A stretch of DNA of 64,000 nucleotides from positions 64,001 to 128,000 of IMG/VR virus record IMGVR_UViG_3300034062_004313. One strand, 5' to 3'. The notes beneath the pieces were generated by a model. That model did not search any database, had not been told where the DNA came from, and saw only the letters and a list, made by a program, of their open reading frames with translations. The position numbers and the translations under genes are program-made. Origin of the DNA: a virus. Positions 2,690-48,335 of the stretch are shown one piece after another. Position 1 is the stretch's first letter, and every line of letters begins with the position of its first letter.

Positions 2690-3838
2690 TCAATATGAAA
2701 TTACTTCTGTTATGTAATCAATATAATTATCAGCACTGAATATTATAAACTTACCCTTTTGTTCAAATGTGCTATAAAGAGAATGTGGTCCATCTTTTTG
2801 AAATCCACCAACATTTATAAAATGTGGAGTTTTAAAGAAAACAATATTAAATTCTTCATTCATATCTATATCCTTTGAAGAATTACAATGTGAACCTGTA
2901 TACTTTATTTTAACTACACTTCCTGTTTTTAATTTATCATAATCAATAATAGATTTATTATATTCTTCAATTTCTTCGGGAGTAGCAAGTCTAAAACAAT
3001 TAGAATAATTGATGTAACCAATTATACAAAAACCATCATTTAACTTTAAATATTTTTCATCTTGTTCTATTTTATACACTTGTCCTACAATAGGTGAACA
3101 CATATTCGGTTTTTTAATGCAATATAGATAATCACCTATTTTAAATTTAAAATTATTTCTCTCTCCAAATATCTCATCTAAAAGAATACATTGGTCTTTA
3201 TTTGCTACTTCATATCCAGCATCAAGTTCTTGTTGAGTGAATGTAATGTTCTGAAATACATCTACTCTACTTAAATATTCTGCTACCTTCTTCTTCCATC
3301 CACAACTATTACTTATACTTGCATGGATACGAATAACATCTTGTATAGGAACTGTTAATTTTTGCATTGTTTCTTTTTTTAATGTTAAATATTTATTTCT
3401 GAATTGTTTTATTGAAATTTCTTTATATCCCGGTTGTATTTTATTGTAACAATAATCTTCTGTATGACTAACAGGGGGAAAATGAGCATATAAACCTAAA
3501 TCTTCATTCCAATTTCCACTATTATTTCCTATTAATTCTATTATGTAATCTGCTACTTCTTGAAGATGTATAACACACAATTTTTCAGGAAATACTTCTA
3601 TACCACAATATTCAAGGAATATATCTTTATCCCATGTTTCAAATATAGTTCTATTATAATCTGATTTCATATAAGTAAATGATAATAATTTATCACGTTC
3701 ATTATAATTATTTACTAAATACTCCCGATTTGTTTTATTTATATCTTTATATTCTTCTTCAAATCCATTTTCAAGAAGAACATCTCTAATTTCATTATAT
3801 TGCTCCTTAGAGCATTTCATAGCGATTGGTTTTATCAT
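2690..3838 (-). CDS. modular hypothetical protein
   Basis: 382-aa ORF; FPEKL...ISIKQFRNKYL module and FRLATPEEI motif. Confidence 0.8.
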   Translation of the reverse strand: MIKPIAMKCSKEQYNEIRDVLLENGFEEEYKDINKTNREYLVNNYNERDKLLSFTYMKSDYNRTIFETWDKDIFLEYCGIEVFPEKLCVIHLQEVADYIIELIGNNSGNWNEDLGLYAHFPPVSHTEDYCYNKIQPGYKEISIKQFRNKYLTLKKETMQKLTVPIQDVIRIHASISNSCGWKKKVAEYLSRVDVFQNITFTQQELDAGYEVANKDQCILLDEIFGERNNFKFKIGDYLYCIKKPNMCSPIVGQVYKIEQDEKYLKLNDGFCIIGYINYSNCFRLATPEEIEEYNKSIIDYDKLKTGSVVKIKYTGSHCNSSKDIDMNEEFNIVFFKTPHFINVGGFQKDGPHSLYSTFEQKGKFIIFSADNYIDYITEVISY

Positions 3839-39987: not shown

Positions 39988-41133
39988 ATGGCTTGTAGTC
40001 CTTATAATCCTTGTCACACACCAACTTGTGACACATGTAATACAGTAAATCCTTGTTATGACAATTGTGGTTGTTTAAATCCAACTACATTTGATTGTAT
40101 AACAAATTTCAAAAAAGCATATAACAATATCCCTTTAGAAATAAATGCTACAGGGCAAGATATGCTTGATAATCTTGATGAAACAGTAGCTGAAATAGAA
40201 AGTAATCTATATAAAGTAAAGGTGGATGATAGTGATACTTGTCCTGATACACTCTTAGATAAGATTACAGCAGGTAGCAATATTACAGTATCTGTAGCAG
40301 GAAGTGGATGTAATAGAAAACTTACTATAACAGCAGGGAATGGTATAACAACTGCTCCTGATATATATGCTAAAGTTTCATCTAATGACACTACATCTGA
40401 TTATCTTGGTAATAAATTTGTAGATGGTACATATGTTAAGAAATCTGTAAATAGTCCCGGTGGAAATGAAACAATTGATTTTGACATTACAATAGCTGAT
40501 TTAATCTCTACTGATAGTGGAAACCAATTAGGACAAGGAGTAGATGGTAAATTAAAAACTTTGTTCTCTGCACCTGATGGTTCTGAAACTAAAATTAACC
40601 CTGTTGCAAATTCTGGAATTACCCTAACTGGTACAGGTACTAATGGTGACCCTTATCTTATAGGAACTAATGGAGCATTATTTGCTGTTCAACCATATAC
40701 AGATGGTGTATGGAGAACATTAACCTTTAACAATGGTAGCAATGCTAATGTGACACTTAATTCTCAATCTGTTAAATATCGTATGAGATACGATGGTTCT
40801 GTAGAGTTTAAAGGAAGCTTAAATTATAGTGTAACATTCAATGTAGCAAGTACTAATAAGATAGCTATAACAGCAGCTAACATCACTACAGGAGGCTCAA
40901 CAAACCTTCCTTCAACAGCCTTTGATAGGGTTGCTAATCTAAGACATTATATGACGTTCAGTAGCCCTAATACAATAAGTGCTACACCAAAATTAACAGG
41001 TTATAATGTAAACATATTAGCTGCTGCTTTAAATAGTCCAGCACCAATTCAAATAGAATTTATGAATGACACTGCTGAAACTAAAAATATAGTAGTAACA
41101 ATGGATGGAGCAATATATCATCCTAATATTTAA
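39988..41133 (+). CDS. Cys-rich N-terminus fibre-like protein
   Basis: repeated KV...DT..D.L..K...G..I modules. Confidence 0.6.
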   Translation: MACSPYNPCHTPTCDTCNTVNPCYDNCGCLNPTTFDCITNFKKAYNNIPLEINATGQDMLDNLDETVAEIESNLYKVKVDDSDTCPDTLLDKITAGSNITVSVAGSGCNRKLTITAGNGITTAPDIYAKVSSNDTTSDYLGNKFVDGTYVKKSVNSPGGNETIDFDITIADLISTDSGNQLGQGVDGKLKTLFSAPDGSETKINPVANSGITLTGTGTNGDPYLIGTNGALFAVQPYTDGVWRTLTFNNGSNANVTLNSQSVKYRMRYDGSVEFKGSLNYSVTFNVASTNKIAITAANITTGGSTNLPSTAFDRVANLRHYMTFSSPNTISATPKLTGYNVNILAAALNSPAPIQIEFMNDTAETKNIVVTMDGAIYHPNI

Positions 41134-41183
41134 GAATTTAGAAAGAACGTAGCTTTTTTTGGTTTTTGCTGCATATGTTTTTC

Positions 41184-41206
41184 GGAGCCGTTCTCGGCTC
41201 TTTTTT
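41184..41206 (+). terminator. intrinsic terminator
   Basis: GAGCCG-TTCT-CGGCTC-T6. Confidence 0.8.
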
Positions 41207-41241
41207 CTTTTTATTAACATTTTAAATTGTAATTTTGTATT

Positions 41242-41496
41242 ATGATAATAACAGATAACATATTCTATTTAGATAATGGAGTAGAAAGACAAATAAATGT
41301 ATTTAACGAAAGTGACCCACACTATAGATGTTTTGAATCAGATGGACAGAAACAAATAATCTTTGGAAGAAGTTCATTTGTAAAAACTGAAAATGGAGAA
41401 GTAGATTTCTTCTCTTTAAGCAAAGAAGAAAAAGATAAATTCTGTAATAACACTAATTTTATAAAAACTTATAAAAAATATGATATACATAGGTAA
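41242..41496 (+). CDS. hypothetical protein
   Basis: 84-aa ORF 4 nt after TAATTTTG. Confidence 0.6.
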   Translation: MIITDNIFYLDNGVERQINVFNESDPHYRCFESDGQKQIIFGRSSFVKTENGEVDFFSLSKEEKDKFCNNTNFIKTYKKYDIHR

Positions 41497-41543
41497 AGAA
41501 TTAAGATGTTGGAAACACGTTAACAATGAATTAACACAACATA

Positions 41544-41575
41544 TTTGATTATATAAAATTATTACACTATATTAC
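41544..41575 (+). promoter_or_regulatory. probable promoter of tRNA operon 1
   Basis: TTTG-N20-TATATTAC (degenerate -7 element). Confidence 0.5.
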
Positions 41576-41584
41576 AATATAATT

Positions 41585-41665
41585 ATGAAATACGTAGTAA
41601 CACATACAACATGTCCACAGTGGTTTACACCGACAATATCGGGAGGGGCTTTGTATGTATACTAA
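41585..41665 (+). CDS. attenuator leader peptide 1 (MKYVVTHTTCPQWFTPTISGGALYVY)
   Basis: codons 6-17 are only Thr/His/Cys/Pro/Gln/Trp/Phe, the tRNAs of operon 1; 3' end pairs with the terminator arm. Confidence 0.88.
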   Translation: MKYVVTHTTCPQWFTPTISGGALYVY

Positions 41666-41687
41666 GAAATAGCTGTGTAGTAACATC

Positions 41688-41715
41688 AACCCTCTGAGAA
41701 ATCGGAGGGTTTTTT
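41688..41715 (+). terminator. attenuator terminator 1
   Basis: AACCCTCTGA-GAAA-TCGGAGGGTT plus T tract just before tRNA-Pro; 41678-97 can instead pair with 41639-64. Confidence 0.9.
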
Positions 41716-41719
41716 ATTT

Positions 41720-41813
41720 CTAGTTGTGGACGAGAGGTTTATGTCATTAGTCTTGGAAACTAATATCTGCACACAGATGGTGTGGGTCAAGGGTTCGACT
41801 CCCTTCAACTAGA
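41720..41813 (+). tRNA. tRNA-Pro(UGG) with long variable arm
   Basis: acceptor CTAGTTG/CAACTAG, A73; anticodon arm TTAGT-CTTGGAA-ACTAA; T loop TTCGACT. Confidence 0.8.
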
Positions 41814-41823
41814 CTTTTAATTT

Positions 41824-41896
41824 GCCTTACGAAGCTTTTATGGATGAAGTGTACTCTTGTAAAGTACGGAACTGGACTCGATTTCCAGCTAAGGCT
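41824..41896 (+). tRNA. tRNA-Thr(UGU)
   Basis: GCCTTA/TAAGGC acceptor; GTACT-CTTGTAA-AGTAC. Confidence 0.8.
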
Positions 41897-41902
41897 CAAA
41901 TT

Positions 41903-41975
41903 GGAGAAGAAGCTAACTTGGTAGAAGCGTTAGACTGAAAATCTAAAGGAGTTGGTCCGAAACCAACCTTCTCCG
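41903..41975 (+). tRNA. tRNA-Phe(GAA)
   Basis: GGAGAAG/CTTCTCC; TTAGA-CTGAAAA-TCTAA. Confidence 0.85.
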
Positions 41976-41977
41976 CT

Positions 41978-42052
41978 AAATACTTAATGAAACAATAAAG
42001 GAACAAAGGGGTCCGGGTAGAAATACGTTAGCGCCCATTGATTTAAGTATTT
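41978..42052 (+). ncRNA. unknown ~75-nt structured RNA within tRNA operon 1
   Basis: closing stem AAATACTTAA/TTAAGTATTT; GC-rich core with GTA-GAAA-TAC tetraloop. Confidence 0.45.
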
Positions 42053-42057
42053 TTTAT

Positions 42058-42129
42058 TCCTATGTGGTGTAATGTAACATCCACGCCTTTGAAGCGTTGA
42101 GATTGGTGGTTCAAGTCCATCTATAGGAA
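42058..42129 (+). tRNA. tRNA-Gln(UUG)
   Basis: TCCTATG/TATAGGA; ACGC-CTTTGAA-GCGT; T arm GGTGG-TTCAAGT-CCATC. Confidence 0.82.
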
Positions 42130-42131
42130 CT

Positions 42132-42206
42132 GTCTAAGTGTTCTGACTGGATTCAGATGAATGACTGTGAATTATTCAAAAAGGGTTCGAATCCCACTTA
42201 GACCCA
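42132..42206 (+). tRNA. tRNA-His(GUG)
   Basis: GTCTAAG/CTTAGAC; AATGA-CTGTGAA-TTATT; C discriminator; T-stem register imperfect. Confidence 0.78.
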
Positions 42207-42210
42207 ATAT

Positions 42211-42283
42211 ATAGGTACTCATGGCTGGCGTGATAAACAATCTCCAAAATTGTGATTTGTTGAATCGTTCTCAACTACCTATG
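42211..42283 (+). tRNA. tRNA-Trp(CCA), divergent
   Basis: ATAGGTA/TACCTAT, G73; ACAAT-CTCCAAA-ATTGT; atypical T loop ATCGTTC. Confidence 0.7.
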
Positions 42284-42339
42284 CTTTATAGGTCTATATA
42301 CCTATATTTATAGATTATAGGTTTTAAAGGCTATAATTT

Positions 42340-42415
42340 GTCCAGATACCTAATATTGATTTTGGGATAGGTCTGCAACACCTATTAAATATCGGTTTGA
42401 TTCCGATTCTGGACT
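42340..42415 (+). tRNA. tRNA-Cys(GCA)
   Basis: GTCCAGA/TCTGGAC, U73; TAGGT-CTGCAAC-ACCTA. Confidence 0.82.
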
Positions 42416-42429
42416 CTATTAAAAATAAA

Positions 42430-42461
42430 TTTTTTTATTTGAAAAAGATTTCGTATATTTG
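42430..42461 (+). promoter_or_regulatory. promoter of tRNA operon 2
   Basis: -7 element TATATTTG (42454-61) in the same TTTCGTATATTTGC context as the operon 3 promoter. Confidence 0.7.
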
Positions 42462-42486
42462 CTGTATAAATAATAAACATTCAACA

Positions 42487-42567
42487 ATGCAACTTATAAA
42501 TATGATAGTGGATAACGGTATTGGAGCAAACGAGAAGTTTGGCTTCAGGTATTCTATTGTCGTATAA
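42487..42567 (+). CDS. attenuator leader peptide 2 (MQLINMIVDNGIGANEKFGFRYSIVV)
   Basis: codons 4-17 are only Ile/Asn/Met/Val/Asp/Gly/Ala/Glu/Lys, the tRNAs of operon 2. Confidence 0.88.
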   Translation: MQLINMIVDNGIGANEKFGFRYSIVV

Positions 42568-42588
42568 TTACTTACTAACCCGATAAAG

Positions 42589-42619
42589 AATCCTGAGGCC
42601 CATCGCTTCGGGATTTTTT
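42589..42619 (+). terminator. attenuator terminator 2
   Basis: AATCCTGAGGC-CCATC-GCTTCGGGATT plus T tract; 42581-600 can instead pair with 42541-62. Confidence 0.9.
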
Positions 42620-42623
42620 GTTT

Positions 42624-42698
42624 AATCTCGTAGCAAAATGTGGCTTTGCTTCAGCCTTTTAAGCTGACTAAAAATGGGTTCGACTCCCATCGGGATTA
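42624..42698 (+). tRNA. tRNA-Lys(UUU)
   Basis: AATCTCG/CGGGATT; TCAGC-CTTTTAA-GCTGA. Confidence 0.88.
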
Positions 42699-42704
42699 CT
42701 AAAT

Positions 42705-42777
42705 GGCTCTTTAGCTCAGTGGTAGAGCTTCGTTTTTACATGACGAGAAAGCACTTGTCCGATTCAAGTAAGAGCTA
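42705..42777 (+). tRNA. tRNA-Val(UAC)
   Basis: GGCTCTT/AAGAGCT; canonical D arm; TCGTT-TTTACAT-GACGA. Confidence 0.82.
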
Positions 42778-42778
42778 C

Positions 42779-43108
42779 ATGAAATATATATTAGGAATAC
42801 TGTTCTTATTAATTATAGGAACAGCAACAAAAACAGGAATTGCAAGTTATTATCATAACAAGTTTCAAGGAAGGAAAACTGCTAGTGGTGAATTATATGA
42901 TAAACATAAATTAACAGCAGCTTCTAATCAATATAAACTTGGTGATAGTGTAAGAGTAACAAATACTAAGAATGGTAAAAGTGTAAATGTTACAGTAAAT
43001 GACCGTATGGCTAATAATGGAAGACTAATTGATTTAAGTAGAAGTGCTGCTGATAGTCTTGGTTTTATTAAGGATGGTTTAGTTGTAGTTAAAGTTAGTA
43101 TATTATAA
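42779..43108 (+). CDS. rlpA: RlpA-like double-psi beta-barrel protein (lytic transglycosylase family)
   Basis: hydrophobic N-terminus; GIASYY...GRKTASGE.YD...LTAA...VRVTN..NGKSV.V.VNDR...R.IDLS..AA..LG; start moved to ATG 42779 because the longer ORF overlaps tRNAs. Confidence 0.85.
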   Translation: MKYILGILFLLIIGTATKTGIASYYHNKFQGRKTASGELYDKHKLTAASNQYKLGDSVRVTNTKNGKSVNVTVNDRMANNGRLIDLSRSAADSLGFIKDGLVVVKVSIL

Positions 43109-43113
43109 ATATC

Positions 43114-43187
43114 TGTTTTGTAGCTCAGTGGCCTAGAGCGTGAAGCTGTTAACTTCAGGGTCGTGGGTTCGAATCCCATCAGGACAG
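43114..43187 (+). tRNA. tRNA-Asn(GUU)
   Basis: TGTTTTG/CAGGACA, G73; TGAAG-CTGTTAA-CTTCA. Confidence 0.92.
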
Positions 43188-43192
43188 CATAT

Positions 43193-43277
43193 TGTGGGAT
43201 GGTGTAATTGGTAACACGCAAGGCTCATAACCTTGAGACAGAAAATGCTAGCAAGGGTTCGAATCCCTTTCCCGCAA
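43193..43277 (+). tRNA. tRNA-Met(CAU) with extended variable region
   Basis: TGTGGGA/TCCCGCA; CAAGG-CTCATAA-CCTTG. Confidence 0.82.
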
Positions 43278-43282
43278 CACAA

Positions 43283-43355
43283 GCAGTATAGGCAGATTGG
43301 CTTATGCACCTCACTTCCAATGAGGACATGGTGGGTTCGATTCCTACATGCTGCA
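43283..43355 (+). tRNA. tRNA-Gly(UCC)
   Basis: GCAGTAT/ATGCTGC; CCTCA-CTTCCAA-TGAGG. Confidence 0.88.
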
Positions 43356-43402
43356 CAAAAATTATATTATGAAAAATTCTTTAAAAGAAGGTGAAGAGAT
43401 AT

Positions 43403-43475
43403 ACTCTCATCTTCTAGTTGGTCAGGATAACACACTTTCAATGTGTTGACACGGGTTCAAGCCCCGTTGGGAGTG
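43403..43475 (+). tRNA. tRNA-Glu(UUC)
   Basis: ACTCTCA/TGGGAGT; ACACA-CTTTCAA-TGTGT. Confidence 0.88.
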
Positions 43476-43485
43476 CTTTAAAAAT

Positions 43486-43559
43486 GGTAGATGGGTCTGC
43501 TGGATGAAGATGTCGGTCTGTCGAACCGAAGATGATGGGTTTGAATCCCATATCTACCG
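43486..43559 (+). tRNA. tRNA-Asp(GUC)
   Basis: GGTAGAT/ATCTACC, G73; TCGGT-CTGTCGA-ACCGA. Confidence 0.85.
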
Positions 43560-43564
43560 CATTA

Positions 43565-43639
43565 GGACTTGTAGCCAAGTTGGTAAAGGCCCTTGACTCA
43601 TAATCAAGAGATGCAATGGTTCGAGACCATTCAAGTCCA
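43565..43639 (+). tRNA. tRNA with CAU anticodon, probably Ile2 (lysidine); Met not excluded
   Basis: GGACTTG/CAAGTCC Ile-like acceptor; CTTGA-CTCATAA-TCAAG; leader 2 has two ATA codons. Confidence 0.75.
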
Positions 43640-43644
43640 CATAT

Positions 43645-43716
43645 AGGAATATAGTAGAAGGGTTATCACAATTGACTGATACTCAATTAATATAGGTTCG
43701 AATCCTATTGTTCCTA
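43645..43716 (+). tRNA. tRNA-Ile(GAU)
   Basis: AGGAATA/TGTTCCT; ATTGA-CTGATAC-TCAAT. Confidence 0.85.
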
Positions 43717-43721
43717 CATTT

Positions 43722-43794
43722 GGGGATAAAGCTCTAGCGGATGAGCATCTGCCTTGCACGTAGAAGGTTACGATTTCGAGTGTCGTTATCTCCA
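43722..43794 (+). tRNA. tRNA-Ala(UGC)
   Basis: GGGGATA/TATCTCC with G3:U70; TCTGC-CTTGCAC-GTAGA. Confidence 0.88.
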
Positions 43795-43818
43795 CATAGG
43801 GGTTCGGAAAATAATTAG

Positions 43819-43854
43819 CTACATCTCTTTATTAATAAGGGTTGTAGCTTTTTT
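43819..43854 (+). terminator. terminator ending tRNA operon 2
   Basis: AGCTACA.CTCTT...AAGGG.TGTAGCT plus T tract. Confidence 0.75.
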
Positions 43855-43930
43855 ATTGTCTCAAATATTGTAATAATTTGCGACATAATTTATTTTTTGT
43901 CAGGTTATAACCTTTCTTTATCTTTGTTTT

Positions 43931-44098
43931 ATGAATTGGCATATACTACCTGTAAATGATATAGAATATCATGAAGAATCTACCACTTGTAAGTGTGAAC
44001 CACAAGTAGAATTTATAGAAGGAGATATGCTAATTATACAAAACTCTTTTGATGGTAGAGAAGGAGTTGAATGGGTAAATGAAATTTTAAATAAATAA
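43931..44098 (+). CDS. 55-aa hypothetical protein (MNWHILPVNDIEYHEESTTCKCEPQ...SFDGRE...)
   Basis: translated by hand; H..H..CxC pattern; TATCTTTG element 4 nt upstream. Confidence 0.65.
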   Translation: MNWHILPVNDIEYHEESTTCKCEPQVEFIEGDMLIIQNSFDGREGVEWVNEILNK

Positions 44099-44130
44099 TT
44101 TGGAAAATTCAAAATAATTTCGTATATTTG
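44099..44130 (+). promoter_or_regulatory. promoter of tRNA operon 3
   Basis: TTTG-N20-TATATTTG, full Bacteroidota consensus. Confidence 0.8.
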
Positions 44131-44134
44131 CTTT

Positions 44135-44203
44135 ATGAAAACATTATCACTATATAGTTCCTCAAGTTATCTCTTATTAAGAGACAGGGATTGTATTGTG
44201 TAA
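44135..44203 (+). CDS. attenuator leader peptide 3 (MKTLSLYSSSSYLLLRDRDCIV)
   Basis: codons 4-15 are only Leu/Ser/Tyr, the tRNAs of operon 3. Confidence 0.88.
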   Translation: MKTLSLYSSSSYLLLRDRDCIV

Positions 44204-44231
44204 ATAGCTATAAGCTTTTAGCTCCCCTAAC

Positions 44232-44263
44232 AATCCCTTGTCTTTCCAGATGAGGGATTTTTT
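44232..44263 (+). terminator. attenuator terminator 3
   Basis: AATCCCTTGTCT-TTCC-AGATGAGGGATT plus T tract; 44230-43 can instead pair with 44182-94. Confidence 0.9.
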
Positions 44264-44266
44264 ATT

Positions 44267-44339
44267 GGCTCTATGACGTAATCGGCAACCGTCTTGGCTT
44301 TAGACCCCAAGTTTTCCAGTTCGAATCTGGATAGAGCTA
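44267..44339 (+). tRNA. tRNA-Leu(UAG) lacking a long variable arm
   Basis: GGCTCTA/TAGAGCT, A73; TTGG(C)-TTTAGAC-(C)CCAA. Confidence 0.75.
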
Positions 44340-44394
44340 CAAATTAGCAGCCCTCTATGGATAATTCTATTGACGAATAGAATATGGGCAAAAT

Positions 44395-44477
44395 ATTCCT
44401 GTGGTGAAATGGTGAGACACGGCAGACTTAAAATCTGCTACGGAGAAACGTTGCTGGTTCGAATCCAGTCAGGAATA
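44395..44477 (+). tRNA. tRNA-Leu(UAA)
   Basis: ATTCCTG/CAGGAAT; GCAGA-CTTAAAA-TCTGC; variable arm present. Confidence 0.9.
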
Positions 44478-44480
44478 CTT

Positions 44481-44565
44481 AGCAGAATGTCAGAGTGGTT
44501 TATTGTGATAGTCTTGAAAACTATTGGGTGTAAAAGCTCCTTGGGTTCGAATCCCAATTTTGCTG
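44481..44565 (+). tRNA. tRNA-Ser(UGA)
   Basis: AGCAGAA/TTTTGCT, G73; ATAGT-CTTGAAA-ACTAT; variable arm. Confidence 0.88.
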
Positions 44566-44569
44566 CAAT

Positions 44570-44658
44570 AGAAGATTGTGTGAGTGGCTTAAACAACCAG
44601 TTTGCTAAACTGGCGAGGGATTAAAACACCTCCATTGGTTCAAATCCAATATCTTCTG
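44570..44658 (+). tRNA. tRNA-Ser(GCU)
   Basis: AGAAGAT/ATCTTCT, G73; CCAGT-TTGCTAA-ACTGG; variable arm. Confidence 0.9.
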
Positions 44659-44663
44659 CATAT

Positions 44664-44756
44664 TGTGTTGTAACGGCAGTAGACTGTAAATCTACTCTGC
44701 ATAACAAATTGTCGTACTGGTCTCGCAGTAAGAAGGTTCGAATCCTTTCAACACAA
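44664..44756 (+). tRNA. tRNA-Tyr(GUA) without a D arm, with enlarged variable region
   Basis: TGTGTTG/CAACACA, A73; GTAGA-CTGTAAA-TCTAC; canonical T arm; only 8 nt between acceptor and anticodon stems. Confidence 0.7.
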
Positions 44757-44782
44757 CATTAACTTATTATTAACTATAGACA

Positions 44783-44814
44783 TTTGACTATATAAAGTAA
44801 ATAGTCTATTTTTG
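44783..44814 (+). promoter_or_regulatory. Bacteroidota sigma promoter for a small RNA
   Basis: TTTG-N20-TATTTTTG with a GACTAT/ATAGTC inverted repeat. Confidence 0.7.
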
Positions 44815-44818
44815 TATT

Positions 44819-44956
44819 GTACAAATTCCCAACCGTCATAGGAGATTTGTATTTAATTAACAATAACTATATATTCGATTGATGTAACTTTGTTCTTAGG
44901 AACGCAACTTGACGGTTGGGACCCCTTGTACTTAATTGTATGAGGGGATTTTTTTT
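44819..44956 (+). ncRNA. candidate ~140-nt small RNA with its own promoter and terminator
   Basis: 12-bp stem TCCCAACCGTCA (44827-38) / TGACGGTTGGGA (44910-21); terminator CCCCTTGTAC...GTATGAGGGG-A-T8. Confidence 0.6.
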
Positions 44957-45054
44957 GCAGACATCCGAGGTTTTTCTTTCCTTCTTTTACGTCCTCCACA
45001 AAAATAAAAGAGTGTCATTAAGATAGTATAGTATATTACACTTGGTATATTATA

Positions 45055-45290
45055 TGATAGGATGTAGAAAAATCAGCAATGTCTAAGGTGACAACTGGAC
45101 CTGAACGAAATTATCAGCAAAAACTACATTCCTCCGTGAAAAATAAAATCATCTTATAGCTGATAATTATTTGTAGATGATTGGCAGGACATGGGAATCT
45201 TAGGTTGACAATATGTTTATAGGAGTATGTGTTAACTATAAATACATTATCCCAACAGGGGAAGACCTTGTTCAGGATAGACCCCCTTAT
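45055..45290 (+). ncRNA. candidate multi-stem structured RNA
   Basis: no credible ORF; stems 45109-18/45159-68, 45100-06/45270-76, 45147-54/45175-82, 45060-67/45124-32. Confidence 0.4.
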
Positions 45291-45316
45291 GTAAATTAAC
45301 AATAAAATGTAAAACT

Positions 45317-45622
45317 ATGAAAAACCACAAAATGACATCATATCAATTCATGATGTTAATGCAAGAATTACCAAATCCAATGTATTATGCTAGAAATGGA
45401 GCTAATGTAGGATTTAGAGTAAAAGTAGGATATTTAAAGAAGTCCATTGATAATACTCCTACAATATTAATAAATCCTAATTCTCAACCTATGAAGATGG
45501 CAGAAGTTGAACAGGTAGAATTTGAATTAGTTCCGAACAATACTATTTGGTATTGGCAACCTGTAGAACCAATTACTATAATAACATTAGATAAGAAAGA
45601 GTACATTAAAAATTGGGAATAA
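45317..45622 (+). CDS. hypothetical protein
   Basis: 101-aa ORF. Confidence 0.65.
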   Translation: MKNHKMTSYQFMMLMQELPNPMYYARNGANVGFRVKVGYLKKSIDNTPTILINPNSQPMKMAEVEQVEFELVPNNTIWYWQPVEPITIITLDKKEYIKNWE

Positions 45623-45930
45623 TGAATATAATAAAATGGTATAAAAGAGTATTTAGAATTCTTACTATAGAAGAATGTAAAGAATTAGGATTAGTACATT
45701 CTCATAATATATATGGTGATAGTATTAATCATTTAAATTGTAGAAGTATTTGGAAAGATGAAAAGGATAGAACATATAGGTGTGAAAGTTTAATACCTAC
45801 TATAGGAGTACTAGATTTATGGATTTTAAAAATGAAAAATCAAGATAAAGTACAACCAATAACTCAAGAAGAATATAATAAAATAAGAGATGAAGAATTT
45901 GAAAGGCTCAAGACTTTATATTCGCCTTAA
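45613..45930 (+). CDS. hypothetical protein
   Basis: NIYGD.INHLNCRSIW motif. Confidence 0.65.
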   Translation: MGIMNIIKWYKRVFRILTIEECKELGLVHSHNIYGDSINHLNCRSIWKDEKDRTYRCESLIPTIGVLDLWILKMKNQDKVQPITQEEYNKIRDEEFERLKTLYSP

Positions 45931-45967
45931 CAAATAATAGTGTAATTTTGGCTTCTAAATAAAAATC

Positions 45968-46288
45968 ATGAAAGTATTAACAGAAGGACATTATTATGAA
46001 CTAGAACATTTTGAAAAAGATGAATCGGGTAGTTCAGAAAGTTTACAATTTATCGAAAAGGTTCCAAAAGGTGAAGGGAAAGTACAAGATTTAGTAACAG
46101 TAAATAATGGAACTACAAATGAAGAAGTTCTTAAAGTTCTAATAAATAGAATGAACTATTTACAAGCAAAATTTCCATGTAGAGAAAATGCTATTGTAAT
46201 TACAAAACTTGAAGAAAGTCTAATGTGGTTAGAAAAAAGAACTGTTGATAGAATAGCTAGAAATGTAGAAGGTAAACAATTAAAATAA
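45968..46288 (+). CDS. Tad1-like anti-defence sponge protein
   Basis: NGTTNEEVL.VLI.R...LQ..FPCRENA..ITKLEE.LMWL..R..DR..RNVEG resembles the recalled Tad1 C-terminal signature. Confidence 0.7.
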   Translation: MKVLTEGHYYELEHFEKDESGSSESLQFIEKVPKGEGKVQDLVTVNNGTTNEEVLKVLINRMNYLQAKFPCRENAIVITKLEESLMWLEKRTVDRIARNVEGKQLK

Positions 46289-46296
46289 AATAAACT

Positions 46297-46512
46297 ATGA
46301 AAAAACAATTATTTACGTATGCTGTATTATTCCATCAGCATGAAGAGAAAGAGGGAAAATTGGAATACAAAGAAACACTTATTCTTGTAGAACCAAAAGT
46401 GATTTTAGCAAAGAATAGTAATGAAGTAGCATTCAAAGCTACAAGAGACGTACCAGAACAATATGCAGGATTTTCAGAAAATGTAGAAATTATAGTACGC
46501 CCTTTTAAATAG
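46297..46512 (+). CDS. small hypothetical protein ending IIVRPFK
   Basis: 71-aa ORF; possible frameshift extension. Confidence 0.7.
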   Translation: MKKQLFTYAVLFHQHEEKEGKLEYKETLILVEPKVILAKNSNEVAFKATRDVPEQYAGFSENVEIIVRPFK

Positions 46513-46711
46513 CTCCCCCTTAATGTGGGATAGTGGGAGCAAAGGAGTATGGGAACAATTAGTAGACCCACCTAAATATAAAAGTACTTTCCAAAATTAT
46601 ATGGGTACAACTACAAATTTAGTAGGACAAGCAATAAACACTTTGACAACAGGAACATCAATATCATATAACATGGCAGATGCAATGTCATTCACAAATT
46701 AAAATCAAATT

Positions 46712-46876
46712 ATGAAAACACTAACAAATCTATTTACAAGCAACCCATCTTACATGAAATGGGGTAATGAAAGAATTGCAAAAAGAACAGGGCTGAAACC
46801 AAAAACAGTAGAGAAATTCAAAAAGAATCCCTTGTATAAGATAATGAAAACCCAATATCTTAACGAGATTAATTAG
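46712..46876 (+). CDS. 54-aa basic HTH-like protein (MKTLTNLFTSNPSYMKWGNERIAKRTG...)
   Basis: translated by hand; resembles the N-terminus of 47019..48335 (NP..L..G..K..LA.RLG). Confidence 0.55.
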   Translation: MKTLTNLFTSNPSYMKWGNERIAKRTGLKPKTVEKFKKNPLYKIMKTQYLNEIN

Positions 46877-46926
46877 GAAATGTCGCAAAAAAGGCGTATA
46901 TTGTTATGATATGCGCTTTTTTATTT

Positions 46927-46998
46927 GGCTCCTTAGTTAAATGGATATAACCGCAGAATTCTAATCTGCATTTGGGAGTTCGATTCTCTCAGGGGCTA
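46927..46998 (+). tRNA. tRNA-Arg(UCU)
   Basis: GGCTCCT/AGGGGCT; GCAGA-ATTCTAA-TCTGC. Confidence 0.88.
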
Positions 46999-47018
46999 CG
47001 AAATCTTAAAAATAAATT

Positions 47019-48335
47019 ATGATTATAACACAAACAATGCAAAAGTTTATTGACAATCCGAAGATGTTAGAGAGTGGATATTGCTCAAAAGCAAAATTAG
47101 CTCAAAGACTTGGAACAACAATAGACGATATTACAGAATCAAGGTTTAAAGTGAAACAAATGATGTCTTCATTAGACCATGCTCAAGAGTTCTTTAAAGA
47201 ATTAAAATCAGAAATTGTTAATGAACATACTACAAGAGTAGATAATGAAAAGGGTACTATAACATCGGATGTAGAAACTACATTTGAACCCAAGAATGAT
47301 ATTGAATTAGCTGAATTACATAAGATTGATTTAACAAAATACAAAATAAGTACATATTGGTCTAAACTAAAGAGCAATGGTAAATTCACTTCATCTGTAT
47401 TAGCTACATTAAGAAATATTGATAAGGATATTCCTAAACAAAAAGAATCATTAATAGAAGAAATAGATGAATATTTTGGTAGTAAAAAAGCTATTGAAAA
47501 TTATAGATTCTTCACAAGAGAAATTGATAAGGATAGAAAAACTGCTAAAAATACAGATGGTCAACTATTAGAAATATCCATTCCTGATTTACACATTGGT
47601 AAAATGTCTCATAGAGAAGAAACAGGGGAAGATTATGATTTAAAAATTGCATCTGCAAGATATAAGAATGCTATAACTCAACTATTAAAAACAGCCAATT
47701 TAGATAATGTATCTGATATATTACTACCCATTGGTAATGACTTGTTCAATGTAGATAATCAGTTCTCAACTACTACAGGTGGTACACCACAGGATTGTGA
47801 TAGTAGGTTCCACAAGATGGTAGGAGCAGCAAAAGAACTCCTTATAAATACAATAACAGGGTTAAGTGCATTTGCAAGAGTACATGTTCTTATAGTACCA
47901 GGCAATCATGATGAAGTTACAACATTTATGTTAGGTGAAATATTAGAAGCATGGTTTCATAATGATAGTAACATAACTGTAAATAATACAGCAAAACTTA
48001 GAAAATACTTCCAATTTGGAAAGAATTCTTTCCTTTATACTCATGGAGACAAAGAAAAACATGGGGATTTAGGATTGATATTTGCTACAGAAGAACCTAG
48101 ACTTTGGGCTGATACTAAATACAGATTTGTAAAACTTGGTCATCTTCACAAGCAAAAGAAAATAGAATATATAACAACAGACACACTTCAAGGGTTCCAA
48201 ATAGAAATACTTCCATCACTAAGTTCTGCTGATAAGTGGCATTATGGAAAAGGTTTCTTAGGAGCAAAGCAAGCAAAAGCCTATCTCTATGATAAAGAAC
48301 TTGGGGAAATTGCACAGTATACACACACTGTTTAA
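47019..48335 (+). CDS. calcineurin-like metallophosphoesterase with N-terminal extension
   Basis: PDLH, GND, PGNHD, THGD, GHLH motifs. Confidence 0.85.
   Translation: MIITQTMQKFIDNPKMLESGYCSKAKLAQRLGTTIDDITESRFKVKQMMSSLDHAQEFFKELKSEIVNEHTTRVDNEKGTITSDVETTFEPKNDIELAELHKIDLTKYKISTYWSKLKSNGKFTSSVLATLRNIDKDIPKQKESLIEEIDEYFGSKKAIENYRFFTREIDKDRKTAKNTDGQLLEISIPDLHIGKMSHREETGEDYDLKIASARYKNAITQLLKTANLDNVSDILLPIGNDLFNVDNQFSTTTGGTPQDCDSRFHKMVGAAKELLINTITGLSAFARVHVLIVPGNHDEVTTFMLGEILEAWFHNDSNITVNNTAKLRKYFQFGKNSFLYTHGDKEKHGDLGLIFATEEPRLWADTKYRFVKLGHLHKQKKIEYITTDTLQGFQIEILPSLSSADKWHYGKGFLGAKQAKAYLYDKELGEIAQYTHTV

Follow-up and report, generated by a model that had tools for sequence, protein, structure and literature searches.

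The window analysed here is a stretch of 64,000 nucleotides (nt) of viral DNA, positions 64,001 to 128,000 of IMG/VR record IMGVR_UViG_3300034062_004313. It comes from a phage genome represented by a single contig of 155,874 base pairs (bp) and carries more than 20 transfer RNA (tRNA) genes on the plus strand between 41.5 and 47 kb. Ten of these genes were found by ARAGORN and Rfam within 42624-43795. In order they are Lys UUU, Val UAC, Asn GUU, a tRNA with a CAU anticodon, Gly UCC, Glu UUC, Asp GUC, a second CAU tRNA, Ile GAU and Ala UGC. A short open reading frame (ORF), here called leader 2, ends 57 nt ahead of tRNA-Lys and starts about 20 nt after a promoter box. The subject of this analysis is the candidate attenuator, attenuator 2, formed by this ORF and the RNA structures around it; the coordinates of its parts and of the genes behind it are collected in Table 1.

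Codons 4-17 of leader 2 read exactly as an earlier note on this DNA had given them: ATA AAT ATG ATA GTG GAT AAC GGT ATT GGA GCA AAC GAG AAG. No amino acid outside the nine served by the ten downstream tRNAs occurs in this block, which we call the sensor, and none of the nine is missing. In the long ORFs of this genome the nine together account for 55.5% of residues. One million peptides of 25 residues were simulated with this composition: an unbroken run of 14 or more in-set residues arose with P = 1.6e-3, and one that in addition held all nine amino acids with P = 1.0e-4. Among the 1,452 genome ORFs of 18-45 amino acids (aa), no run for this set is as long as 14; leader 2 is not counted in the 1,452, as the ORF finder began it at an upstream TTG.

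Three RNA structures can be drawn from the leader region. The earlier note had claimed that 42541-42562 pairs with 42581-42600, and this antiterminator was recovered as a helix of 20 bp with two single-base bulges. The core helix of the terminator has -15 kcal/mol, and A-U pairs can lengthen it to 42582-42622. The untranslated leader region folds with z = -5.4 relative to 200 shuffles, and its minimum free energy (MFE) structure consists of the protector, the inner hairpin and the terminator. In this fold the protector is predicted to sequester the antiterminator strand as long as no ribosome translates the leader.

To model the effect of ribosome position, we masked a footprint reaching from 18 nt upstream to 12 nt downstream of the first A-site base. 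When bases on either side of the ribosome were free to pair, equilibrium folding gave unrealistic long-range helices; the folding used instead was confined to RNA 3' of the footprint and ended before the terminator 3' arm is made. With any of codons 2-15 in the A site, 18/18 nt of the terminator 5' arm were held in the antiterminator. This number dropped to 15/18 at codon 16 and 12/18 at codon 17, and it was 0/18 from codon 21 to the stop codon. In this model the sensor codons therefore fill the range of positions at which a stalled ribosome would keep the antiterminator free; a ribosome that has run on to the ORF's end would destroy it.

Table 1. Elements of attenuator 2, its tRNA operon and the two other leaders of the same genome (positions in the window)
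Feature	Position	Strand	Basis or remark
Promoter core TTTCGTATATTTG	42449..42461	+	holds Bacteroidota -7 box TAnnTTTG at 42454-42461
Leader 2 ORF, 26 codons + TAA, MQLINMIVDNGIGANEKFGFRYSIVV	42487..42567	+	sequence reading, ORF list
Sensor, codons 4-17, INMIVDNGIGANEK	42496..42537	+	only, and all, nine amino acids of the ten downstream tRNAs
Protector (1:2) hairpin	42500..42565	+	42500-42512 pairs with 42553-42565; inner hairpin 42521-42548; MFE and centroid structures
Antiterminator (2:3)	42541..42600	+	42541-42562 with 42581-42600, -24.3 kcal/mol; spans entire terminator 5' arm
Intrinsic terminator (3:4)	42589..42621	+	arms 42589-42599 and 42605-42615, then TTTTTT
tRNA-Lys(UUU)	42624-42699	+	ARAGORN, Rfam
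tRNA-Val(UAC)	42705-42778	+	ARAGORN, Rfam
DPBB/RlpA-like ORF, 109 aa, inside tRNA operon	42779..43108	+	Pfam PF03330, E = 1.9e-17
tRNA-Asn(GUU)	43114-43188	+	ARAGORN, Rfam
CAU tRNA (Met; initiator-like or elongator)	43193-43278	+	ARAGORN, Rfam
tRNA-Gly(UCC)	43283-43356	+	ARAGORN, Rfam
tRNA-Glu(UUC)	43403-43476	+	ARAGORN, Rfam
tRNA-Asp(GUC)	43486-43560	+	ARAGORN, Rfam
CAU tRNA, probably tRNA-Ile2 (AUA decoder after lysidine modification)	43565..43640	+	
tRNA-Ile(GAU)	43645-43717	+	ARAGORN, Rfam
tRNA-Ala(UGC)	43722-43795	+	ARAGORN, Rfam
Terminator closing the ten-tRNA operon	43818..43856	+	hairpin 43818-43850 + T-run
Leader 1, sensor THTTCPQWFTPT	41585-41665		block Pro, Thr, Phe, Gln, His, Trp-like tRNA, Cys; run 12, P = 1e-7
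Leader 3, sensor LSLYSSSSYLLL	44135-44203		block Leu, Leu, Ser, Ser, Tyr-like tRNA; run 12, P = 2.5e-8

The same genome supplies internal controls. Leaders 1 and 3 stand ahead of two further tRNA blocks and match them with runs of 12. When the leaders were scored against the other two blocks of this genome, only runs of 1-3 were obtained.

Covariation of leaders with tRNA blocks across phage lineages is the strongest argument for reading the element as an attenuator. The pattern was found in three further lineages: Leptolyngbya phage Lbo-JY46 (L011), the closest GenBank relative, together with an IMG/VR relative (the contig of L050 and L052); Cellulophaga phage phi17:2 (L001); and a second IMG/VR group (L043/L053). 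Lbo-JY46 and its IMG/VR relative keep the block order of the present phage except in two places: the block-2 homologue holds Cys and Arg(UCU) tRNAs, and the block-1 homologue holds Arg(ACG). The leaders changed with them. The block-2 leaders of Lbo-JY46 (IDIRNIDIVCAEGVNKC) and L052 (VIDNIRNAEGCKKA) include C and R, and they give runs of 17 and 14, respectively, with their own sets versus 6 and 5 with the set of the present phage. In the block-1 leaders of the same two, TRQHTQFWFPT and TRTHTQQFWFPTR, R is present and C is absent. Lbo-JY46 and L052 are close relatives, yet their leader peptides diverge in sequence while the composition stays in the set, which fits a sensor and not a functional peptide.

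In phi17:2 the tRNAs are grouped differently, and the leaders follow the grouping. Leader QRLHLQELEQP precedes a block of Pro, Glu, Gln, His, Leu, Leu and Arg tRNAs; leader TKTGITVIDKTKGARA precedes Ala, Lys, Ile, Gly, CAU, Asp, Thr, Val, Arg and CAU tRNAs; and leader YNNSNWSFSY precedes Tyr, Ser, Ser, Asn, Trp, Phe and Cys tRNAs. The fourth lineage, L043/L053, has leader TYTTYQPKQKPQ ahead of Pro, Gln, Tyr, Thr and Lys tRNAs. The 13 x 13 matrix of leaders by blocks is diagonal, and in each of four phages the correct assignment of leaders to blocks scores 35-38 as compared to at most 22 for wrong permutations. The tRNA clusters of three unrelated phages (L002, L035 and L027) have no such leader or terminator.

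Searches for additional members gave few relatives. A pattern search from leader 1 and from phi17:2 leader A found only a phi17:2 relative, and a search with a leader-tail pattern recovered only the same contig. Among 37 stretches returned by a tRNA-Pro pattern only four were true tRNA-Pro matches, a tRNA-Leu pattern yielded one true relative (L050), and two metagenome scans for homologues produced no matches. In L045, an IMG/VR relative (about 2900-3213, compared with L043 1240-1391), an ORF with Cys-rich motifs and the look of a TnpB-type, transposon-associated gene stands at the site of the leader and terminator that close relatives have before tRNA-Pro. L045 could thus carry a natural attenuator knock-out.

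The earlier note had also suggested a conserved ribosome-footprint geometry from the equal dimensions of leaders 1 and 2. Both are indeed 26 aa long with the antiterminator starting at codon 19 (in leader 1, strand TCGGGAGGG begins at 41639), but outside this genome the strict geometry does not hold, and the leader ORFs vary from 21 to 36 aa. What recurs is the relation between sensor and helix: the last sensor codon coincides with the last position that fully frees the antiterminator or lies 1-3 codons beyond it. Across the 13 leaders the stop codon and the terminator are 18-33 nt apart, and most of the 13 show a switch-like footprint profile. The profiles of L052_b2 and phi17_C are more complex, and L053_a is permissive for about 3 codons beyond its own sensor.

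These comparisons bear on two explanations that dispense with the ribosome. In the first, the short ORF is untranslated, the codon match arose by chance, and two tRNA blocks are simply separated by a constitutive terminator or a processing structure. In its favour, translation of the ORF is only a prediction, and the set of nine amino acids accounts for 56% of residues. Chance would have to produce, however, a match with P of about 1e-4 for leader 2 alone and of 1e-7 to 1e-8 for leaders 1 and 3, a match that recurs and covaries in 13 leaders of four lineages, and alternative helices that are in register with the reading frame. We regard this explanation as very improbable. In the second, the leader RNA would sense tRNAs directly in the manner of a T-box, codon-like triplets pairing with the anticodons of uncharged tRNAs and no translation being involved. 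T-boxes likewise tie tRNA status to the choice between terminator and antiterminator ahead of genes of the translation apparatus. Against this, the triplets are contiguous and in frame from ATG to stop at a fixed distance from a terminator in 13/13 leaders, an arrangement needed for a ribosome but not for a T-box. In 41000-47300 Rfam gave no match at E up to 1, and both a T-box and a known leader family of Rfam (amino-acid leaders included) were rejected. We regard direct sensing, too, as very improbable.

The attenuator proposed in the earlier note, with leader 2 as a gate on the ten-tRNA operon that reads every one of its amino acids, is well supported in silico by the statistics, the register of the alternative structures and the leader-tRNA covariation. 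Every element expected of a leader-peptide attenuator at the sequence level is present, namely an ORF, matching codons, a terminator, an antiterminator with a protector, and their register (the last in silico). On this basis attenuator 2 is probably a translation-coupled transcription attenuator of the trp/his/ilv type that would control ten tRNA genes and one small ORF.

Transcription would start a few bases past the TATATTTG box, and a ribosome would translate the 26-codon leader while RNA polymerase proceeds. If sensor codons 4-17 were decoded promptly, the ribosome would reach the end of the ORF and mask 42541-42562, the terminator (42589-42615) would form, and transcription would stop before tRNA-Lys. 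If any of the nine amino-acid/tRNA species were limiting, the ribosome would stall in the sensor, 42541-42562 would pair with 42581-42600, no terminator would form, and the ten tRNAs would be made. Without translation, the protector (42500-42512/42553-42565) would hold the antiterminator strand and termination would follow. The circuit would be a negative feedback: a low capacity to decode the codons that the phage tRNAs serve would turn on their synthesis, and a restored supply would turn it off. Heavy phage use of codons such as ATA, loss of host tRNAs in infection, and host anticodon nucleases are possible causes of low capacity. Translation of the ORF, stalling-controlled readthrough in vivo and the physiological trigger are inferred in this scheme, in contrast to the features, statistics, folds and covariation from which it was built.

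Several points weigh against this scheme. Each tRNA of block 2 is sampled by just 1-3 sensor codons, and the sensitivity to a mild shortage may be low. The set of block 2 covers 56% of genome residues, and leader 2 taken alone is statistically the weakest of the three leaders. As the earlier note had cautioned, GGT has no strict-wobble tRNA in the block, and it is the only such codon of the sensor. Translation of the ORF and regulated termination are predictions, and coupling of transcription to translation in the presumed Bacteroidota host is an assumption. Finally, at equilibrium the terminator keeps the advantage over the antiterminator fold at most stall positions, by 3.5-14.5 kcal/mol with the ribosome at codons 2-12. 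Readthrough would therefore have to be under kinetic control, the antiterminator folding before the terminator while the RNA is still being made, as it does in classical attenuators.

In enterobacteria, the leader of the ilvGMEDA operon (Ile/Leu/Val) and thrL (Thr/Ile), trpL, hisL, leuL and pheL share a plan in which a short translated ORF rich in regulatory codons is followed by protector, antiterminator and terminator helices, and a stalled ribosome selects the antiterminator. Attenuator 2 has the same layout of ORF and helices, and, as in those systems, one leader could sense more than one amino acid. The enterobacterial leaders regulate biosynthetic enzymes and contain runs of codons for one to three amino acids, whereas attenuator 2 would regulate tRNAs and samples nine amino acids, 1-3 times each, in 14 codons. 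It is also phage-encoded, has a Bacteroidota-type promoter, and shows neither sequence similarity to these leaders nor a match to an Rfam leader family. The pheM leader of the E. coli pheST operon, which encodes phenylalanyl-tRNA synthetase, uses attenuation to match part of the decoding apparatus to the amount of charged tRNA available. Leader-peptide control of a decoding component would be common to both, but pheST is a chromosomal system with a synthetase as target and one amino acid as signal, whereas the product of attenuator 2 is tRNA itself, so that feedback on tRNA abundance would be direct. The T-box would resemble attenuator 2 in that tRNA status picks terminator or antiterminator ahead of translation-related genes; it differs in that its specifier codon and T-box sequence bind one uncharged tRNA directly and no ribosome takes part, whereas attenuator 2 has the layout of an ORF. 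The pheL attenuator is among the closest known systems (PMC3082878).

Phage tRNA clusters have been discussed as codon compensation or as a counter to host defences that target tRNAs (PMC10264068). That work shares with ours the large phage tRNA sets and offers a rationale for a phage to keep its own tRNAs; it differs in that, as far as we searched, no cis-regulatory sensor before tRNA genes is described. Full-text literature searches found no paper on attenuators ahead of tRNA genes. The debate between codon compensation and escape from tRNA-cleaving host defences has run for decades, and a sensor ahead of tRNA genes would show what the phage measures, namely slow decoding of exactly those codons that its own tRNAs serve. 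Both ideas would become testable with one reporter construct. If the reading is correct, leader-peptide attenuation would extend to RNA genes as targets, to at least nine amino acids per leader as compared to one to three, and from bacteria to viruses. In practice, a leader sequence could predict which tRNAs share a transcription unit and help to assign tRNAs of ambiguous identity, for instance those with a CAU anticodon that read AUA.

A broader proposal is that large phages run their tRNA genes as supply-on-demand circuits. A checklist leader would act as an OR gate over up to a dozen tRNAs, in part at the level of a single isoacceptor (AUA read by an Ile2 or a UAU tRNA), and any loss of host tRNA, whether by anticodon nucleases, host RNA decay or the phage's own codon demand, would call up the replacement set. 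If so, a counter-defence would be coupled to a sensor, and tRNA genes would for the first time be known to be under attenuation control. We put it forward tentatively, its chances falling a little short of even.

How finely the leaders measure can be judged from their codons. If one CAU tRNA is Ile2, 13/14 sensor codons of leader 2 can be read by block tRNAs under strict wobble. Only the Val, Gly, Gly and Ala codons (4/14) are able to discriminate isoacceptors, and among these GGT fails. Over the 13 leaders, 57/80 informative codons have strict-wobble partners in the block as compared to 45.5 expected from codon usage (z = 2.75). In the present phage the misses lie in four-codon boxes with a U34 tRNA. 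Codon-level tuning exists, and it is modest.

Modest tuning is what would be expected if the mechanism were the same and the signal more general, the leader reporting any slowing of translation (amino-acid starvation, a ribosome-targeting defence or host shut-off) and thereby timing tRNA expression. A sensor made of many different codons with 1-3 copies each is broad, and GGT, TCC and CTC are not strict-wobble partners of phage tRNAs. A general signal, however, has no need to track the tRNAs of the leader's own block, yet leaders follow their blocks in four lineages, and three distinct leaders are kept in one genome. We consider a general signal improbable, though a good deal less so than an untranslated ORF or direct sensing, and continue with a sensor matched to its own block.

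The earlier note had gone further and proposed that ATA, ATT and ATG are sensed separately. The Ile2-like features of the tRNA at 43565 favour this, but the second CAU tRNA is ambiguous, few codons discriminate, and Met is the only block amino acid absent from 3/4 homologous sensors. Codon 6, ATG, may therefore be part of the sensor by accident and not by design. ATA, by comparison, is found in 4/4 homologous sensors. Separate sensing of the three codons is not established.

The proposed Ile2 identity of the 43565 tRNA fared better. This tRNA has a paired G1-C72, an anticodon stem (CUUGA/UCAAG) that lacks the three-G-C run, and no initiator features. The acceptor-stem determinants of E. coli TilS are C4-G69 and C5-G68; C4-G69 is present here, but position 5:68 is U-A. 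Its anticodon arm (xxUGA-CUCAUAA-UCAxx) resembles that of the GGTCC-type CAU tRNA of Taibaiella (Chitinophagaceae), whose genome has exactly three CAU tRNA types, the GGTCC type carrying C4 and C5 as does E. coli ileX. In L052, a tRNA-Ile(UAU) at 2270-2343 occupies the slot Asp-X-Ile(GAU)-Ala, where the present phage and Lbo-JY46 have a CAU tRNA; it is an alternative, TilS-independent means of reading AUA. ATA is the commonest Ile codon of the present phage (52% of Ile codons). Global identity does not separate the possibilities, being 0.67 to ileX versus 0.70 to metT, and the three Taibaiella CAU tRNAs likewise do not separate Ile2 from Met. BLAST of the CAU tRNAs against E. coli genomes gave no match. 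The pointer to Ile2 thus comes only from local features and from the UAU replacement in L052, and we consider this tRNA probably Ile2. A phage-encoded TilS was looked for and rejected, since no TilS-like gene (PF01171) occurs in the phage genome; lysidine on the 43565 tRNA would therefore need host TilS.

The other CAU tRNA, at 43193, has U1-A72 and an acceptor stem near both initiator and elongator Met tRNAs. It has only the second and third of the initiator anticodon-stem G-C pairs, and its 11:24 pair is of elongator type. From these features its assignment as initiator or elongator Met is ambiguous. Its variable region contains about 16 additional bases.

Other tRNA genes of the cluster are also unusual. 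The tRNA-Pro at 41720-41814 is 95 nt long, and the Tyr-like gene at 44663-44757 has a variable region of about 35 nt. In the region 42132-42285, tRNA-His scored only 27.5 bits in Rfam, and a Trp-like gene with a CCA anticodon and an atypical T-loop was missed by both tRNA finders.

The DPBB/RlpA-like gene inside the operon adjoins tRNA-Asn in Lbo-JY46 also (L011 2341-2667). Its top bacterial relatives are Chitinophagaceae proteins with 55-62% identity, and a search of viral contigs with this RlpA-like protein gave no relatives.

The 13-nt promoter core TTTCGTATATTTG has just 2 copies in the 155,874-bp genome, ahead of leaders 2 and 3, and the same core stands ahead of a gene in Lbo-JY46. Its TAnnTTTG motif we take to be the promoter type of Bacteroidota. 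Lbo-JY46 is on record as a Leptolyngbya phage; a Bacteroidota-type promoter precedes each of its leaders, and its true host may therefore be a Bacteroidota. In several leaders the ATG lies only 4-7 nt past the TAnnTTTG box (window 44123-44137, L001 2826-2840, and L011 5378-5393 and 6107-6122), so these mRNAs are probably leaderless, or have next to no sequence ahead of the start codon.

Two further elements were found downstream in the window. Directly ahead of tRNA-Arg(UCU) (46927-46999) lies a nine-codon ORF, MSQKRRILL (46881-46926, plus strand), whose AGG CGT codons sit within the 5' arm of the terminator hairpin preceding that tRNA. A ribosome stalled at these Arg codons would mask the terminator arm, and the element may be a minimal direct-occlusion attenuator for one tRNA. 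At 44783-44955 (plus strand), a multi-branch RNA (z = -4.7) lies behind a promoter-like site of its own, TTTG-N-TAnnTTTG; the RNA has no Rfam match, and no tRNA follows it. Its closing 12-bp helix (44827-44838/44909-44920) runs directly into a terminator (44922-44947 and U8). This RNA may be a riboswitch-like element or a small RNA.

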